From: Chloroflexota bacterium
GTDB lineage: Bacteria; Chloroflexota; Dehalococcoidia; Lucifugimonadales; UBA3495
DNA: 64,000 nucleotides
Assembly: GCA_027623675.1 (NCBI GenBank)
Contig: JAQBVF010000017.1
Span: 14,185-78,184, forward strand
Reading direction: 5' to 3'
In this document: positions 43,279 through 49,552 of the stretch, piece after piece
Layout: each line of letters starts with the position of its first letter
How positions within the stretch are numbered: the stretch's first letter is position 1
Notes under the pieces: model-generated
Seen by the model: only the letters and a program-made list of their open reading frames with translations
Databases searched by the model: none
Told to the model about the DNA's origin: nothing
Program-made: the position numbers and the translations under genes

Positions 43279-43308
43279 TTGTTATGTCGTACAAACGTTC
43301 TATATAAT
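43279..43308 (+). promoter_or_regulatory. Promoter with putative LexA (SOS) box upstream of imuB-dnaE2
   Basis: GTAC-AAAC-GTTC (43289-43300), a variant of GAAC-N4-GTTC, lying between TTGTTA (-35) and TATAAT (43303-43308). Confidence 0.7.
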
Positions 43309-43415
43309 CCGTCCCCCACCGGGGAAATAGCCTCAGATAAGGGCCAAAACCAGGCTCTAAATCAGAACATTTCCCGAACTAAAGCCCCCGAACTAAAAAC
43401 CCGGGACTAAAGCCG

Positions 43416-44615
43416 ATGACCGACCGTTCCATAGCCTGCATGATCGTCACCCACCTCCCGGTTAAAGCCGAGATGCGCCGCTATCCCCAATTGCGGGGAA
43501 AGCCCGTCGTTATCACCGAGAGTTACGGTTCCAGGGACCTGGTGCTGGACAGCTCGCCGGAAGCCCAGGGAGTGACCGCCGGCATGCCACTCGCCGAGGC
43601 CATGTCCCGGTGCAAAGAGGCGTCCCTGGTCCAGGCCGACGCGCCCTACTACAACGGCGCCTTCGACAAGCTGGTCAAGGCCCTTGAATCGCGGAGTCCC
43701 ATGGTGGAAAAGGCCGGACTTGGCTGCACCTACGTGGGTCTGGACGGCTTGGAGCTTATGTACGGAGGCGAGGCGCGAGTTATTGCGTCCCTGCTCCAGG
43801 CGGCGCCCCAGGAGTTCAATCCCAGGGTCGGCGTGGCCACGGGCAAATTCCCGGCCTACGTCGCCGCGGTGACCACCAAGGGCGGGCGGGCCACCAAGGT
43901 GCCCTCGGACGCGGCCGGTTCGGCGGGTTTCTTGAACGCACTTTCCATCGGACTGCTGCCCATATCTTGGGCCAATAAGACCCGGCTGCACCGCTTTGGC
44001 ATCCATACCCTGGGACAACTGGCGGCCCTGCCGGTGGGTGCGGTCCAGGCCCAATTGGGCACCGACGGCCGGCGCGCCTGGCAACTGGCCAGCGGGGTGG
44101 ACAACAGCCCGCTCAAGCCCCACCGGGAGGAGCAGGCGGTGGAAGAATCGCTGACTTTCCCCTCGCCCACCGTCACATGGAGTCCGATCCTGATGGCCCT
44201 GAGCACGCTGCTGGGCCGTGCCTTTGCCCGCCCGGAGGTCGGTGGCCGCTACGTCCGCACCGCCACCATCGAAAGCCATGTGTACCGGCTGCCGCCCTGG
44301 GTGAAACGCTTTGGGTTCAAAGAGGCACTGGGCAGCAGAGACCGGGCCCTGTTCGCCCTGAAGAGCCGGTTGGACAGCGTGACCCTGCCCGGACCGCTGG
44401 AAGACATAAAGCTGACCCTGGCCGGGTTCACCGGAGAGTCGGGGATCCAGACCAACCTCTTCTCAGACGTGCGCAAACAGGAGCAGCTCAAAGAGATGAT
44501 GCGCCAGTTGGAAGCCGTGTTGGGTGGCAAACCGCCCATCTACCAGATGAAGGAGGTGGAGCCGTGGTCGCGCATCCCAGAAAGACGCCAAGCCCTGGTC
44601 CCATTCGACCCGTAA
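43416..44615 (+). CDS. imuB: ImuB-like catalytically inactive Y-family DNA polymerase
   Basis: Y-family features (GKPVVI, GVTAGMPL.EA, GIHTLGQLA) without catalytic carboxylates; C-terminal PWSRIPERR; upstream of dnaE2. Confidence 0.85.
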   Translation: MTDRSIACMIVTHLPVKAEMRRYPQLRGKPVVITESYGSRDLVLDSSPEAQGVTAGMPLAEAMSRCKEASLVQADAPYYNGAFDKLVKALESRSPMVEKAGLGCTYVGLDGLELMYGGEARVIASLLQAAPQEFNPRVGVATGKFPAYVAAVTTKGGRATKVPSDAAGSAGFLNALSIGLLPISWANKTRLHRFGIHTLGQLAALPVGAVQAQLGTDGRRAWQLASGVDNSPLKPHREEQAVEESLTFPSPTVTWSPILMALSTLLGRAFARPEVGGRYVRTATIESHVYRLPPWVKRFGFKEALGSRDRALFALKSRLDSVTLPGPLEDIKLTLAGFTGESGIQTNLFSDVRKQEQLKEMMRQLEAVLGGKPPIYQMKEVEPWSRIPERRQALVPFDP

Positions 44616-44722: not shown

Positions 44723-45076
44723 ATGAACCTGCCTGTGCCCATAGACGTCGCCGTGGACGATGCCGAGCGTCCCGTGTCCGTCACGCTGCCGCCGGCGGCA
44801 TCTGTCCGCCCGCTGGGTCCCCGCCGCCCAGCTAGCTACCGCGGTTCCGAGCAGAAAGGCCGAAAGCTAGCAGTCACTTCCATTGATGACCTATGGCAGG
44901 TGGACGACGAATGGTGGCGAGAAACCCCCATCTCCCGCCGCTACTATCTGATAACCGCTAGGCAGATAACCGCTAGTCAGCTAACCACCCAAGCCCCAAT
45001 CACTCAAGGCGACCGGCGCCTGACCATCTTCCACGACCAGATAAACCACCAATGGCACTGGCAAAAAGGGGGGTGA
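44723..45076 (+). CDS. Small Trp-rich protein of the imuB-dnaE2 cassette (DUF6504-like)
   Basis: PIDV...PVSV...IDDLWQVDDEWWRETPISRRYY...TIFHD..W pattern; 3' part of ORF 44177-45076; start uncertain. Confidence 0.7.
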   Translation: MNLPVPIDVAVDDAERPVSVTLPPAASVRPLGPRRPASYRGSEQKGRKLAVTSIDDLWQVDDEWWRETPISRRYYLITARQITASQLTTQAPITQGDRRLTIFHDQINHQWHWQKGG

Positions 45077-45079
45077 GGG

Positions 45080-45151
45080 GTGCTAGGTTATCAAAGTAAC
45101 TTGAAGCCCATCAGCCGCCAGTTACGCTCGGAAATGACCGATTGTGAGCAG
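45080..45151 (+). pseudogene. 5' fragment of a DUF559-like endonuclease gene, interrupted by repeats
   Basis: GTG after GAGG gives VLGYQSNLKPISRQLRSEMTDCEQ, resembling the DUF559 N-terminus (Y..NLK..SR.LR..MT.AE); then runs into the repeat array. Confidence 0.65.
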
Positions 45152-45201
45152 CCACCCGCATATGTCATCCTGAGCAGCCACCCGCATATGTCATCCTGAG
45201 C
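45146..45201 (+). repeat. Tandem 26-bp repeats GAGCAGCCACCCGCATATGTCATCCT (2 copies)
   Basis: TATGTCATCC cores at 45161 and 45187. Confidence 0.9.
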
Positions 45202-45576
45202 CAGCCGCGGCGGCGAAGGATCTACCAATCCCGAGGAACCGCAGAATGAACCATTACTACGTGTACATCATGGCCAGTTACCAGGGAACTCTATACATAG
45301 GAATGACCAACGATTTATACCGCAGGGCATACGAACACCGTCATAAGTTAGTGCCCGGATTCACCCAAAAGTACAACGTGAACAAGTTGGTGTATTACGA
45401 GGAAACATCGGACGTGGAGTCAGCCATCGCCAGGGAAAAGCAGATTAAAGGATGGCGAAGGAGCAAAAAAGCATCATTGGTGGCATCATCGAACCCACAT
45501 TGGGTGGACTTGGCTGAAAGCTGGTATGAAGACCGAAGCTTGGCAGACCCTTCACTACGTTCAGGGTGACATATGC
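45184..45576 (+). mobile_element. Putative GIY-YIG nuclease element bounded by imperfect ~45-bp inverted repeats
   Basis: Left end GCATATGTCATCCTGAGC..GCGAAGGATCT; right end AGACCCTTCACTACGTTCAGGGTGACATATGC; single gene inside. Confidence 0.7.
45246..45569 (+). CDS. GIY-YIG nuclease (stand-alone, UPF0213/YhbQ-like)
   Basis: YYVYIMAS..GTLYIGMTNDL.RR..EH, FTQKYNV.KLVYYE, AIAREKQIKGWRR.KK. Stop codon lies inside the right inverted repeat. Confidence 0.95.
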   Translation: MNHYYVYIMASYQGTLYIGMTNDLYRRAYEHRHKLVPGFTQKYNVNKLVYYEETSDVESAIAREKQIKGWRRSKKASLVASSNPHWVDLAESWYEDRSLADPSLRSG

Positions 45577-45596
45577 AGAGCCGTGTTCGGGCTGCC

Positions 45597-45775
45597 TATG
45601 TCACCCTGAGCCAGCCACCCTCCTATGTCACCCCGAGCCAGCCACTCGCATATGTCATCCTGAGCCAGCCACCCTCCTATGTCATCGTGAGCAGCCGTTC
45701 GCATATGTCATCCTGAGCAGCCGTTCGCATATGTCATCGTGAGAAGCCATTCGCATATGTCATCCTGAGCCAGCC
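45597..45775 (+). repeat. Tandem array of 7 degenerate 26-27 bp units (TATGTCAYCSYGAG...)
   Basis: Cores at 45597, 45624, 45651, 45678, 45704, 45730, 45756. Confidence 0.92.
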
Positions 45776-45931
45776 GCAGCGGCGAAGGATCTGCCAAGTC
45801 CGAGGACTGCAGGATTAACCGCTATTACGTGTCTGCCATGACCAGTTAACAGAGGACTAGATGCATAGGAATAACCGATCATTTACATCGAAGCTTGGCA
45901 GACCCTTCCCTTCGCTCAGGGTGACATATGC
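45753..45931 (+). mobile_element. Non-autonomous internally deleted copy of the GIY-YIG element
   Basis: Both inverted repeats plus a decayed 5' portion of the GIY-YIG gene fused to its 3' end. Confidence 0.75.
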
Positions 45932-46013
45932 AGAGTCGTGTTCGGGCTGAAAATAATAGCATCGAGGTTAGGTGCCTGGAGTAGAGCATGCTTTTGCGGC
46001 GAGCCAGGATTAG

Positions 46014-46113
46014 TATGGCATCCCGAGCCAGCCACTCACATATGTCATTCAGAGCCAGCCACCCTCCTATGTCATCGTGAGAAGCCATTCGCATATGTCA
46101 TCCTGAGCCAGCC
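46014..46113 (+). repeat. Tandem array of 4 degenerate 26-27 bp units
   Basis: Cores at 46014, 46041, 46068, 46094. Confidence 0.88.
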
Positions 46114-46266
46114 GCAGCGGCGAAGGATCTGCCAAGTCCGAGGACTGCAGGATTAACCGCTATTACGTGTCTGCCATGACCAGTTAACAGAGGACTAGAT
46201 ATGCATAGGAATAACCGATCATTTACATCGAAGCTTGGCAGACCCTTCCCTTCGCTCAGGGTGACA
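46091..46266 (+). mobile_element. Second non-autonomous copy of the GIY-YIG element
   Basis: 46068-46266 is near-identical to 45730-45926, with a 2-bp AT insertion. Confidence 0.75.
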
Positions 46267-46348
46267 GATATAGCTACCATTCTTGGATGCTCAGATCCTT
46301 CATCCAAACCCTAAATTCAGACCGCTGACCACTAACGCCTAACCCACC

Positions 46349-49300
46349 ATGTACGCCGAACTACATTGCCACAGCAACTACTCCTTCCAGGAAGGCGCCT
46401 CCTCCGTGGAGGACCTGCTGGTGCGTGCCCGCGGCTTGGGATACCGGGCGTTGGCGCTGACCGACCACGACAACCTGTGTGGGGCCATGCACTTTGCCCA
46501 GGTGGCCAAAACCCTGGGCATGCAGTCCATAACCGGCGTGGAGATGACGATCAAGGGCCCGGACGCGTGTAAAGACGGCCAGGGCAACTCGCATCTGACT
46601 TTTCTGGCCGAGGACCAAGACGGCTACAGCCAGCTTTCCAACCTGATCTCCTACTCCTACGTGGCCGGAGGCCGCAGGGACCCGGCCCTGGACCTGAAGT
46701 ACATGCCGGACCGCGTCGATGGCCTGCTGCTGCTGACCGGCTGCCGCGCCGGACGGCTGCCCAGTTTGTTAACCGAAGGCAGATTCGCCGAGGCCGAGAC
46801 CCAACTGCGGCAGTATCTGGACTGGTTCGGTACGGACAACGTCTTCGTTGAGTTGCAGCAGAACCTGGTACAGGGCGACACCCAGCGCAACCGGCGGCTC
46901 ATCGACCTGGCCCGCAAGCTGGGGGTCGGCACGGTGGCGACCAACAACGTCCACTACCACGTACCGGACCGCCACCGCCTGCAGGACGCCCTGGTCTCCA
47001 TCAAGCACAACCGCAGCTTGGAAGAGACCCACAAGGAGCGCCGGGCCAACAATCAGGCCCATCTCAAGTCTCCCGCCGAGATGGCCGCCCTGTTCGCCGA
47101 ATGCCCGGAGGCTATCGAGAACACCCTCCGCATCGCCGAGCGCTGTTCTTTCGACCTGACCAAGGACCTGGCATACCGTTTCCCCGACTACCCCGTTCCG
47201 GCGGGCGCCACGCCCCAGAGCCACTTGGAAGACCTATGCCTCCAAGCCGCCGAACGCCGCTATGGGGGCGTCAACCAAAAGGTCAAAGACCGCTTGGACG
47301 AAGAATTGCGGCTGATCGGGAAACACGAGCTGGCCGGGTTCTTTCTGATCTACTACGAGATCATCCAGATGGCCCGCCAGATCATGATTGAGATGGGCCT
47401 TAGCGACGCCGAGATACCCCTGGAAGAACGCCCGCCGGGCCGGGGCCGGGGCTCGTCGGTGGCCATGCTGGTCGGCTATCTGATCGGTCTTTCCCACATC
47501 GACCCCTTGGAGTACAACCTGTCTCTGGACCGGTTCCTGTCCGACGACCTGGGTTCGGTGCCCGATATCGACCTGGACTTCCCCCGCAACATCCGGGAGG
47601 AACTGATCATCCGGGTGCACCGGAAGTGGGGCTGGGACCGGGCCGCTCTGACCGGCATGATCAGCACCTACCAGATGAAGGGCGCCGTCCGTGACTTGGG
47701 CAAGGCCTTGGGTCTGCCGGCCCAGGGCGTGGACAAGCTGGCCAAGCGGGTCGATTCCCATGATGCCAAGGAACTGGAACTGGAGATGCTCCAACTGCCC
47801 GAGTTCCGGGACATGGTGGACGCTCCGGGCTGGCGCGACCTCATCGAGATGGCGGCCCAGTTGGACGGCTTCCCCAAGTACCTGGCCCAACATCCCGGGG
47901 GCATGATCATTAGCTCGTCGCCTTTGATCGACACGGTGCCGGTGCAGCAGGCAGCCATCGCCGACCGCTACATCTGCCATTGGGACAAGGACAGCATCGA
48001 CCAGGCCGGCTTCGTGAAGATCGACTTCCTGGCCTTGGGCGCCCTTTCTCAGATGCAGGAATGCCTGCTTTTGATCGAAGAACGCGAGGGCAATTACATC
48101 GACCTGAGCCGCATCGACTTCAATGACCGGGCCGTCTACGAGAGCATGCACCAGGCCGACACGATAGGAATCTTCCAGGTGGAGTCGGCCGCCCAGATGC
48201 AGACCGTGCCCCGCATCAAGCCTTGGAACCTGACCGACATGGCCTACGAGGTGGGCGCCGTGCGGCCCGGAGTGGGAGTGAACGACGGCGTGACCCAGTT
48301 CATCCAGCGCCGTTCCGAGGGCATACCATGGGACTATGACCACCCCTTGGAGCAACGGGCCTTGGAGCGCACCCTGGGCATAATACTGTTCCAGGACCAG
48401 GTTAACCAGGTGGCCATGGACGTGGCCGGCTTCACTTCATTGGAGGCCGACCAACTGCGCCGGGCCTTCGGGAAGCGCAACAACGATGCCATGATTCAGC
48501 ATTACTGGGAGAAGTTCCGGAGCGGGGCCGCCGGACTGGGCGTTTCCGAAGATGCGGCCCAACGTATCTTCAAAAAGTTCAATGGCCACTATATGTTCCC
48601 CGAGTCCCATGCCTTTGCCTTTGGCGCGACGGCCTACCACATGGCCTGGCTCAAGTATTACCACCCGCTGGAGTTCTACGTCGCCATCTTCAACCAGCAG
48701 CCCATGGGTTTCTACAACACCGAGACACTGAAAGAGGATGCCAGACGCCACGGCATCACCGTCTTGAATCCAGATATCAACCACAGCCGGGAGAAGTGCG
48801 TCATCAAGGACGAAAGCGTCTTGCTGGGGCTGCGTTACGTCCGTGGCCTGGGCGACGCGGCGGCATCTCAGGCGGTGGCGGCCAGAGACAGAGGAGGGGC
48901 GTTCAAGGACCTGGCCGACGCCATGGAACGCACCGGACTGCGGCGGGAGGCCATCGAGAACCTGGTGACTGCCGGGGCCTTTGACGGCTTGACGGCCAAG
49001 ACTGCCAAGGCTGGGGCAACGCCAAGGGCCAATGAGAGAACGGGCCGGCGGCAGGCGCTGTGGGAAACGGGCTTGCGTTACCGGCCGGTCAACGCCCAAC
49101 TGCCCCTGCTCCTGCCCGTGGACCAAGACATGGCCGAACTGCCCGAGCAGAGCGAGTGGGAGACCATGGGCGAGGAATACCGCATCATGGGCCTCTACCC
49201 CAAGGGGCATCTGATGGCCCTGGCCCGCCCTCACCTGCGGCCGGGGATACTATCCAGCCGTGATGTGGAGTCCAGGGCCGACGGCGATGTCGTCACCGTG

Positions 49301-49552
49301 GCCGGGTTGGTGATACGCCGCCAGCGCCCCCTGGCCAAGGCGGTTTTCCTCACGCTGGAGGACGAGTTCGGCCATATCCCGTTAGTCGTTTGGCCCGGCG
49401 AGTTCGCCAAGTACCGGCAGGTCATCAGAGAGCCGCTGCTGGTCATCACCGGCGAAGTCTCGCGCCGGGATGGCACCATGAATATCGTGGCCAAGCACGT
49501 GGAGCCCATGCCGGCCATGGACCATCTCCCCAAAGCCAAAAGCTGGCAGTGA
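46349..49552 (+). CDS. dnaE2: Error-prone DNA polymerase III alpha subunit DnaE2 (ImuC)
   Basis: MYAELHCHSNYSF, ALTDHD, GRGS, PDIDLDF, QHPGG, KIDFLALG, FQVES, FPESHA, NQQPMGFY, FLTLEDE motifs. Confidence 0.95.
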   Translation: MYAELHCHSNYSFQEGASSVEDLLVRARGLGYRALALTDHDNLCGAMHFAQVAKTLGMQSITGVEMTIKGPDACKDGQGNSHLTFLAEDQDGYSQLSNLISYSYVAGGRRDPALDLKYMPDRVDGLLLLTGCRAGRLPSLLTEGRFAEAETQLRQYLDWFGTDNVFVELQQNLVQGDTQRNRRLIDLARKLGVGTVATNNVHYHVPDRHRLQDALVSIKHNRSLEETHKERRANNQAHLKSPAEMAALFAECPEAIENTLRIAERCSFDLTKDLAYRFPDYPVPAGATPQSHLEDLCLQAAERRYGGVNQKVKDRLDEELRLIGKHELAGFFLIYYEIIQMARQIMIEMGLSDAEIPLEERPPGRGRGSSVAMLVGYLIGLSHIDPLEYNLSLDRFLSDDLGSVPDIDLDFPRNIREELIIRVHRKWGWDRAALTGMISTYQMKGAVRDLGKALGLPAQGVDKLAKRVDSHDAKELELEMLQLPEFRDMVDAPGWRDLIEMAAQLDGFPKYLAQHPGGMIISSSPLIDTVPVQQAAIADRYICHWDKDSIDQAGFVKIDFLALGALSQMQECLLLIEEREGNYIDLSRIDFNDRAVYESMHQADTIGIFQVESAAQMQTVPRIKPWNLTDMAYEVGAVRPGVGVNDGVTQFIQRRSEGIPWDYDHPLEQRALERTLGIILFQDQVNQVAMDVAGFTSLEADQLRRAFGKRNNDAMIQHYWEKFRSGAAGLGVSEDAAQRIFKKFNGHYMFPESHAFAFGATAYHMAWLKYYHPLEFYVAIFNQQPMGFYNTETLKEDARRHGITVLNPDINHSREKCVIKDESVLLGLRYVRGLGDAAASQAVAARDRGGAFKDLADAMERTGLRREAIENLVTAGAFDGLTAKTAKAGATPRANERTGRRQALWETGLRYRPVNAQLPLLLPVDQDMAELPEQSEWETMGEEYRIMGLYPKGHLMALARPHLRPGILSSRDVESRADGDVVTVAGLVIRRQRPLAKAVFLTLEDEFGHIPLVVWPGEFAKYRQVIREPLLVITGEVSRRDGTMNIVAKHVEPMPAMDHLPKAKSWQ

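Follow-up and report, generated by a model that had tools for sequence, protein, structure and literature searches.

Genes and repeats ahead of dnaE2

The window, that is, the whole stretch of 64,000 nt analysed here, comes from a Chloroflexota bacterium (contig JAQBVF010000017.1). Between two polymerase genes it carries a small nuclease gene set among repeats. The features of this locus, with their positions in the window, are:

43416..44615, + strand: imuB-like Y-family polymerase gene, left context
ending at 45076: conserved short ORF without a Pfam family, after the imuB-like gene
45080..45149, + strand: 5' remnant of a DUF559 gene (PF04480), truncated at TGTGAGC, the point at which the first of the half copies starts
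45164..45189, + strand: a single half copy of 26 nt, made up of the 5' arm and its upstream flank, on the left hairpin's head side
45190..45222, + strand: left hairpin, with GTCA head, TCCT/AGGA stem, GA/GA, inner stem-loop, TC and tail TACCAA
45246..45569, + strand: Ssn-type single-domain GIY-YIG nuclease gene, 107 aa, with Y7, Y17, R27, H31 and E64 conserved
45546..45570, - strand: right hairpin with a CCCT/AGGG stem; its head points outward, and it overlaps the stop and last codons of the nuclease gene
45600..45758, + strand: six tandem 26-27-nt half copies before the next whole hairpin
45759..45925, + strand: gene-less derivative 1, 167 bp, with both hairpins and a decayed 5' gene start (about 79% like the intact unit)
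46017..46096, + strand: three tandem half copies
46097..46265, + strand: gene-less derivative 2, 169 bp, almost the same sequence as derivative 1
46287..46315, + strand: 3' remnant of a four-helix-bundle (PF05635/TIGR02436) gene
46349..49552, + strand: DNA polymerase III alpha-type gene, dnaE2-like, right context

The initial annotation had placed a 107-aa GIY-YIG gene between inverted repeats and its last codons and TGA within the right repeat; both observations hold, the stop lying inside the head of the right hairpin. Each repeat is itself a hairpin, which makes the pair REP-like units rather than simple terminal inverted repeats. The extent of 393 bp given to the unit has to be revised, the repeat region running from 45164 to 46265 and the intact cassette measuring 381 bp from hairpin to hairpin. 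The supposedly exact outer ends, GCATAT...ATATGC, turned out to be private to the source genome, and the six congeners with the cassette share only TGTCA. The unit is more AT-rich than its flanks, as had been noted, with a GC content of 49.9% (47.8% for the nuclease ORF) against 63-65% in the flanking genes and 60.9% in the genome.

Two smaller features lie nearby. Ahead of imuB, at 43280-43310, the sequence CGTACAAACGTTCT resembles what we take to be a LexA box (GAAC-N4-GTTC); if it is one, the nuclease gene could be part of a transcript made upon DNA damage, at a time when single-stranded DNA is plentiful. The ORF before the slot contains short 15-nt tandem repeats (44950-44990).

The nuclease is of the Ssn type

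A profile search assigned the 107-aa product to PF01541 (GIY-YIG; E 1.3e-15, residues 4-75), and modelling followed by a fold search gave a predicted GIY-YIG structure (pLDDT 92.6). The catalytic Tyr/Tyr/Glu is kept in the protein alignment, where Y7 and Y17 are invariant and E64 nearly so; the Ssn paper gives Y6, Y17 and E64 (PMC11893778). No family was assigned by an NCBIfam search, a structure search found no solved SsnA structure, and the closest named relative, in a Chloroflexota genome, is 89% identical.

According to the text of Chenal et al. 2025 (PMC11893778), SsnA is a 94-aa GIY-YIG protein flanked by hairpins that cuts single-stranded DNA only, a few bases upstream of the hairpin; the four Ssn enzymes assayed there all come from Neisseria and Wolbachia, and the Discussion puts forward the analogy with IS200/RAYT, and mobility, as a hypothesis. 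The initial annotation's idea of a GIY-YIG enzyme recognising its own flanking repeats, in the manner of RAYT and REP, was thus right in substance and already in print there. We took an NTS-flanked copy from Neisseria gonorrhoeae as a stand-in for N. meningitidis SsnA, Ssn membership asking for a match to SsnA at E < 1e-10 over 75% of its length. The window nuclease is 52.9% identical to this copy over 85 of 90 aa (89.7 bits, E 5e-20), is a single-domain GIY-YIG protein of less than 150 aa, as is also asked of an Ssn nuclease, and its gene lies between hairpin repeats with GTC heads. We therefore class the locus as an Ssn-type cassette whose hairpin is an SRM-like variant, and not as a new kind of system.

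The gonococcal copy (L147:430-1050) has a frameshift close to its start; its record, filed as a plasmid, has the size of a chromosome. Among 50,697 phage records we found 0 matches to the nuclease family; 32 of 72,556 plasmid records match, most of them chromosome- or chromid-sized, and the family is rare on true plasmids.

A variant hairpin that goes with its nuclease

The hairpins of the locus have a GTCA head and a 4-bp stem, followed by two GA dinucleotides facing each other, an inner stem-loop that varies, TC and a short tail (GA type). This pattern has 73 matches in the source genome and 0 for a backwards control, so it is not due to chance, and the repeat recurs across the genome rather than at the locus alone. 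The stems covary: 67 of the 123 matches to a pattern without pairing are fully complementary in the source genome (shuffled mean 11.1, maximum 22), as are 201 of 235 at 79 other loci (shuffled 38.3, maximum 54). The case for a hairpin rests on this covariation instead of on folding energies, which for four hairpins were no better than those of shuffles (z 0.11, 0.37, -0.38 and 1.41). Tandem G-A pairs are poorly rewarded by folding-energy models. An Rfam scan of 45000-46400 gave just a chance miRNA match (E 0.68).

The published SRM motif, HGTCWYN(0-2)YYVSBRHN(0-5)WNVSBRGN(0-2)RNCYNB, finds nothing at the locus; its 30 matches in the source genome show no enrichment over three Markov controls (35-38), and it matches 10 of 80 homologue loci. 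Judged by their sequence, the window repeats are classed as an SRM-like variant and not as SRM as published.

We then surveyed the best 80 of 584 homologue loci, which come from many phyla and were ranked by likeness to the window query, a ranking that favours its clade; the congener G005 is among them. Head-out hairpins are found on both sides of the gene at 47 loci, on one side at 21 and on neither at 12. The prediction that the repeats would accompany GIY-YIG homologues is borne out, 68 of the 80 loci having hairpins on at least one side, against 3 of 144 control windows. Hairpins in the opposite orientation also occur near the gene (upstream in 25/80, downstream in 33/80). The 68 loci comprise 49 with GA-type hairpins, 18 with perfect-stem hairpins and 1 with both.

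To relate these types to the enzyme we used a tree of 96 proteins (80 from the loci, 12 hand-labelled ones from relatives, the gonococcal copy and 3 outgroup sequences; 16 without a label). GA and perfect-stem types (56 vs 24 rows) are separated by 1 change, against 20.7 when shuffled (0/500), a single event with an SH-aLRT of 74 over 95 columns, and the gonococcal copy falls with the perfect-stem class. Stem subtypes of the GA class also cluster (8 changes vs 14.3 shuffled, 0/200; 39 of 49 rows labelled). Hairpin type follows the nuclease protein tree.

Half copies lie on the head side

The locus contains ten half-hairpins, all of them on the head side, and two internally deleted cassette copies; in derivative 1 the deletion joins at an ACCG/ATCG word. 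The same asymmetry is observed throughout the source genome, where GA hairpins have a partial copy on the head side in 27 of 70 cases (many from one family, with a few double counts) and on the tail side in 0 of 70. Perfect-stem hairpins have partial copies on neither side (0/7). At the 79 other loci the counts are 57/265 for the head side and 6/265 for the tail side, five of the six being whole tandem copies. SsnA is described as cutting on the head side (PMC11893778), and the half copies, which lie on that side of the hairpin, suggest repair synthesis primed by a nick. A point against this reading is the upstream flank inside the half copies, mostly 7-11 nt (14 at the window locus), which exceeds the reported distance of the Neisseria cut, a few bases.

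In a Planktothrix plasmid (L148:1300-2100) an MmeI-type gene and DISARM drmA enclose an Ssn cassette of the GA type, which has dimers and arrays of half copies on the head side.

We considered whether the repeated derivative could be an assembly artefact. Contigs of two public runs, possibly the source data themselves, match the stretch without differing letters, none spanning it whole, and their depth on the duplicated derivative is about double (21 vs about 10, and 103 vs about 50), which fits two derivative copies; both observations count against an artefact. No excision joint was seen in these contigs, which drop rare variants, and the data sets listed with this sequence included no RNA run. 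An unrelated contig skips about 263 nt after imuB.

Turnover of the slot before dnaE2

A census of the slot covered 19 genomes of the genus, including the source genome; one had no dnaE2 match and two ended at the slot, leaving 16 scoreable. Ssn occupies the slot in 7 of them (broken in G016 and G003), a DUF559 gene in 5, a four-helix-bundle gene in 3 and hairpins only in 1; the slot is not vertically fixed. The DUF559 allele carries its own C/G palindromes and the four-helix-bundle allele carries heptamer repeats. In the window, remnants of both are nested within the slot: the DUF559 remnant is 78% identical to the intact G014 allele over 83 nt (E 5e-15) and breaks at a TGAGC that it has in common with the hairpin arm; the remnant of the four-helix-bundle gene is 93% identical to the intact G002 allele over 29 nt (E 1e-5). 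Other Ssn carriers retain the DUF559 downstream repeat.

Intact examples of the two alternative alleles are seen in G014 C55 (L042), a DUF559 gene with C/G-rich palindromes, and in G002 C7 (L041), a four-helix-bundle gene between heptamer repeats; in G004 a four-helix-bundle start is fused to a DUF559 start.

On the dnaE2 tree the slot states do not cluster (7 changes vs 6.9). A single vertical gain is rejected, as the carriers are not a clade on this tree (p-AU 5e-51; the tree may itself be mosaic). The gene is under purifying selection, with dN/dS of 0.03-0.11 in 20 of 21 pairs, the remaining pair being saturated. A recent horizontal jump into the slot is also ruled out, because in most pairs dS for ssn (0.49-1.85) equals or exceeds that for dnaE2 (0.10-1.14); between the sisters G005 and G015 it is 0.59 for ssn and 0.10 for dnaE2. 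Close homologues of the nuclease (82-90%) were found at the dnaE2 slot only. An old and selected gene together with scattered slot states fits allele exchange or repeated overwriting rather than a recent jump, and ssn may move rarely and persist long at few sites, as RAYTs do.

Age and selection are also what one would expect of a domesticated host tool. In that case the nuclease would restrict or process hairpin-bearing single-stranded DNA, either incoming, as in Neisseria, or at stalled forks under the error-prone polymerase operon, while recombination and slippage of the ordinary kind would spread the repeats, and interspecies allele exchange would change the slot without the enzyme. SsnA does lower the integration of NTS-bearing transforming DNA in Neisseria (PMC11893778), the window gene is oriented as imuB and dnaE2 are, and allele exchange alone could explain three cassette types scattered on the host tree. 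However, the slot accepts unrelated passengers, many copies are broken (at the second site described below as well as in the slot), and symmetric slippage would not give one-sided half copies. We regard domestication as unlikely, though far from negligible.

Other cassettes and dispersed repeats

The three close paralogues in the source genome are all flanked by hairpins, and the distant one (C36) is not. Besides the window gene, hairpin-flanked Ssn paralogues of 53-54% identity lie at G000 C8:42132-42440, between what look by eye like methyltransferase and restriction genes, and at C2:10608-10991, where the gene is broken.

A second cassette, whose two neighbours we take to be amidase-like genes, was followed at 17 loci, of which 8 are filled, 5 cleanly empty, 3 rearranged and 1 cut off; its copies are broken in G000, G008, G006 and G016. 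A 76-bp gene-less dimer after a presumably ilvC-like gene shares its right arm with the window cassette and is filled in 1 of 18 genomes. By eye we saw no target duplication or fixed junction between filled and empty sites in these diverged congeners. Elsewhere, in G011 C44 (L176), the left hairpin and the 5' third of the second ssn gene are tandemly duplicated before an intact copy, and many identical 76-bp dimers sit at the ends of contigs in G003, where they hint at a recent spread.

The dispersed repeat families of the source genome give 25 and 14 blast hits. A larger, composite element is found at G000 C44:48450-48740 and about 24 other sites (25 blast hits, 82-100% identity). It measures at least 300 bp and is built around a hairpin dimer of 125 bp; its outer arms are conserved and likewise start with GTCATCC, and its arrays of 18-nt half copies vary. 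We found no gene for this element, and a derivation of its 125-bp core from ssn was rejected, the interior having no significant match to 30 ssn loci.

Paralogues at three unrelated sites, clean empty spacers, internally deleted derivatives that keep both ends and dispersed families are also what a true autonomous transposon would leave, the nuclease alone excising and inserting the 381-bp unit and its miniature derivatives at new sites. Against this, the paralogues are just 53-54% identical, close homologues were found at one slot only, the outer end is not conserved and no target duplication was seen; to our knowledge, a hydrolytic GIY-YIG nuclease has no strand-joining step. We consider such a transposon improbable. 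The part of the initial annotation that implied precise transposon behaviour does not stand, since the ends vary, target duplications were not observed and the slot copies are old and selected.

Search for another enzyme

No integrase, DDE, IS110 or rve match was found on the window's contig, in agreement with the annotation, which had reported no DDE, HUH or recombinase gene in the window, and no Y1 transposase (PF01797) was found in the source genome (91% complete). Among 31 genomes, a nuclease match is present in 20 of the 22 with at least 20 hairpins and in 1 of the 9 with fewer, related genomes not being independent; one of these 20 has only a distant-type match and some only the perfect-stem type. 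A one-to-one link between cassette and tail type across genomes was rejected: G012 has 35 copies and is not a carrier, and the carrier G015 has just 2.

Could the repeats be spread by another enzyme, a RAYT/IS200-type or other transposase, with the nuclease gene as a passenger? Genes for DDE, IS110, rve and integrase proteins do occur on other contigs of the source genome, and two hairpin-rich genomes, G007 (40 hairpins) and G019 (54), have no close Ssn that we could find. However, a hairpin lies within 1.2 kb of 0 of 16 transposase or integrase genes, the 20 genus genomes yield only 4 weak partial Y1 matches (hairpin nearby in 0/4), and hairpin type tracks the nuclease tree. CGTC-type repeats, moreover, are described as unlinked to transposases in the text of Di Nocera et al. 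2013 (PMC3733652). We think it very improbable that another enzyme is responsible.

A proposed model of nicking and repair

The reading that we prefer is that the enzyme probably nicks single-stranded DNA beside the hairpin and that host repair does the copying. In single-stranded DNA the nuclease would bind to the hairpin and cut close by, a few bases off on its head side, cleavage of single strands being taken from the relatives described in PMC11893778. The cut may prime repair synthesis that leaves half copies behind, and host repair could then copy, stutter over, delete or exchange the cassette unit. Since the cassette and gene-less copies come and go among related genomes, they are likely to spread with help from host DNA repair; recombinational repair, not a cut-and-paste transposase reaction, would spread the gene-less dimers and swap cassettes between lineages.

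A bolder version is possible but in our view doubtful: Ssn cassettes may be transposase-free selfish elements that nick single-stranded DNA by their own hairpin, are copied by host repair and leave one-sided scars. They would be the missing motor of the orphan CGTC/TGTC superfamily and one of three unrelated mini-cassettes (Ssn, DUF559 and four-helix bundle) that invade the same chromosomal slots and overwrite each other there. The nested three-cassette slot does suggest that DUF559 and four-helix-bundle genes share a guild of small mobile cassettes with Ssn.

Mobility was left as a hypothesis in the Ssn paper (PMC11893778), and the locus provides comparative evidence for it as well as concrete test substrates in its empty sites, deleted derivatives and one-sided scars. 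It also bears on the gap left by Di Nocera et al. 2013 (PMC3733652), whose text names no dedicated enzyme for CGTC-type repeats. The GA/GA hairpin class, present across many phyla and missed by the published motif, marks a branch of predicted sequence-specific cutters of single-stranded DNA that may be of interest as tools.

Comparison with known systems

A literature search outside subscription journals found PMC11893778 alone on the nuclease family, and nothing on cassette swapping. The closest system is Ssn with its NTS/SRM repeats (SsnA, CDD cd10448; PMC11893778). As there described, it too has a single-domain GIY-YIG protein of about 100 aa with the same catalytic positions, encoded between GTC-headed hairpins that recur genome-wide. 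The window hairpin differs in its 4-bp stem closed by GA/GA, which fails the published motif, and in that the heads point outward, whereas the two nearest NTS of the gonococcal copy point toward the gene. New here are the GA/GA hairpin variant, the derivatives and head-side half copies, the three-cassette slot and the filled and empty sites. Compared with the text of PMC11893778, the locus adds derivatives with deletions, arrays of half copies, sites found empty and the swapping of cassettes in the slot; Figure 2c of that paper may include repeats of the GA type.

GIY-YIG homing endonucleases and Penelope elements share the nuclease fold and, as a likely logic, spread by cut and repair. The window cassette is, in contrast, an intergenic single-domain ORF without an intron, an extra DNA-binding domain or a reverse transcriptase, and its relatives cut only single-stranded DNA. 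It also differs from IS and MITE elements: the outer ends vary among the 7 carriers, and no target-site duplication was seen by eye in these diverged congeners.

The repeats resemble the CGTC/TGTC-tagged REP families catalogued by Di Nocera et al. 2013 (PMC3733652), as their text describes them, in being GTC-tagged palindromes with short tails, mostly heterodimers, and in the lack of a linked transposase. Those families have stems of 8-9 bp and loops of 4-5 nt, and the text mentions neither a GA/GA-interrupted type nor a GIY-YIG partner.

RAYT/REPtron systems and their REPINs, finally, share with the window cassette a long-lived single gene between inverted hairpins, dispersed gene-less doublets and recognition of hairpins in single-stranded DNA. 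A RAYT, however, is an HUH/Y1 transposase (PF01797) able to join strands, with a GTAG head on its repeats, whereas the window protein belongs to PF01541, a hydrolytic GIY-YIG enzyme whose repeats have the head GTCA.
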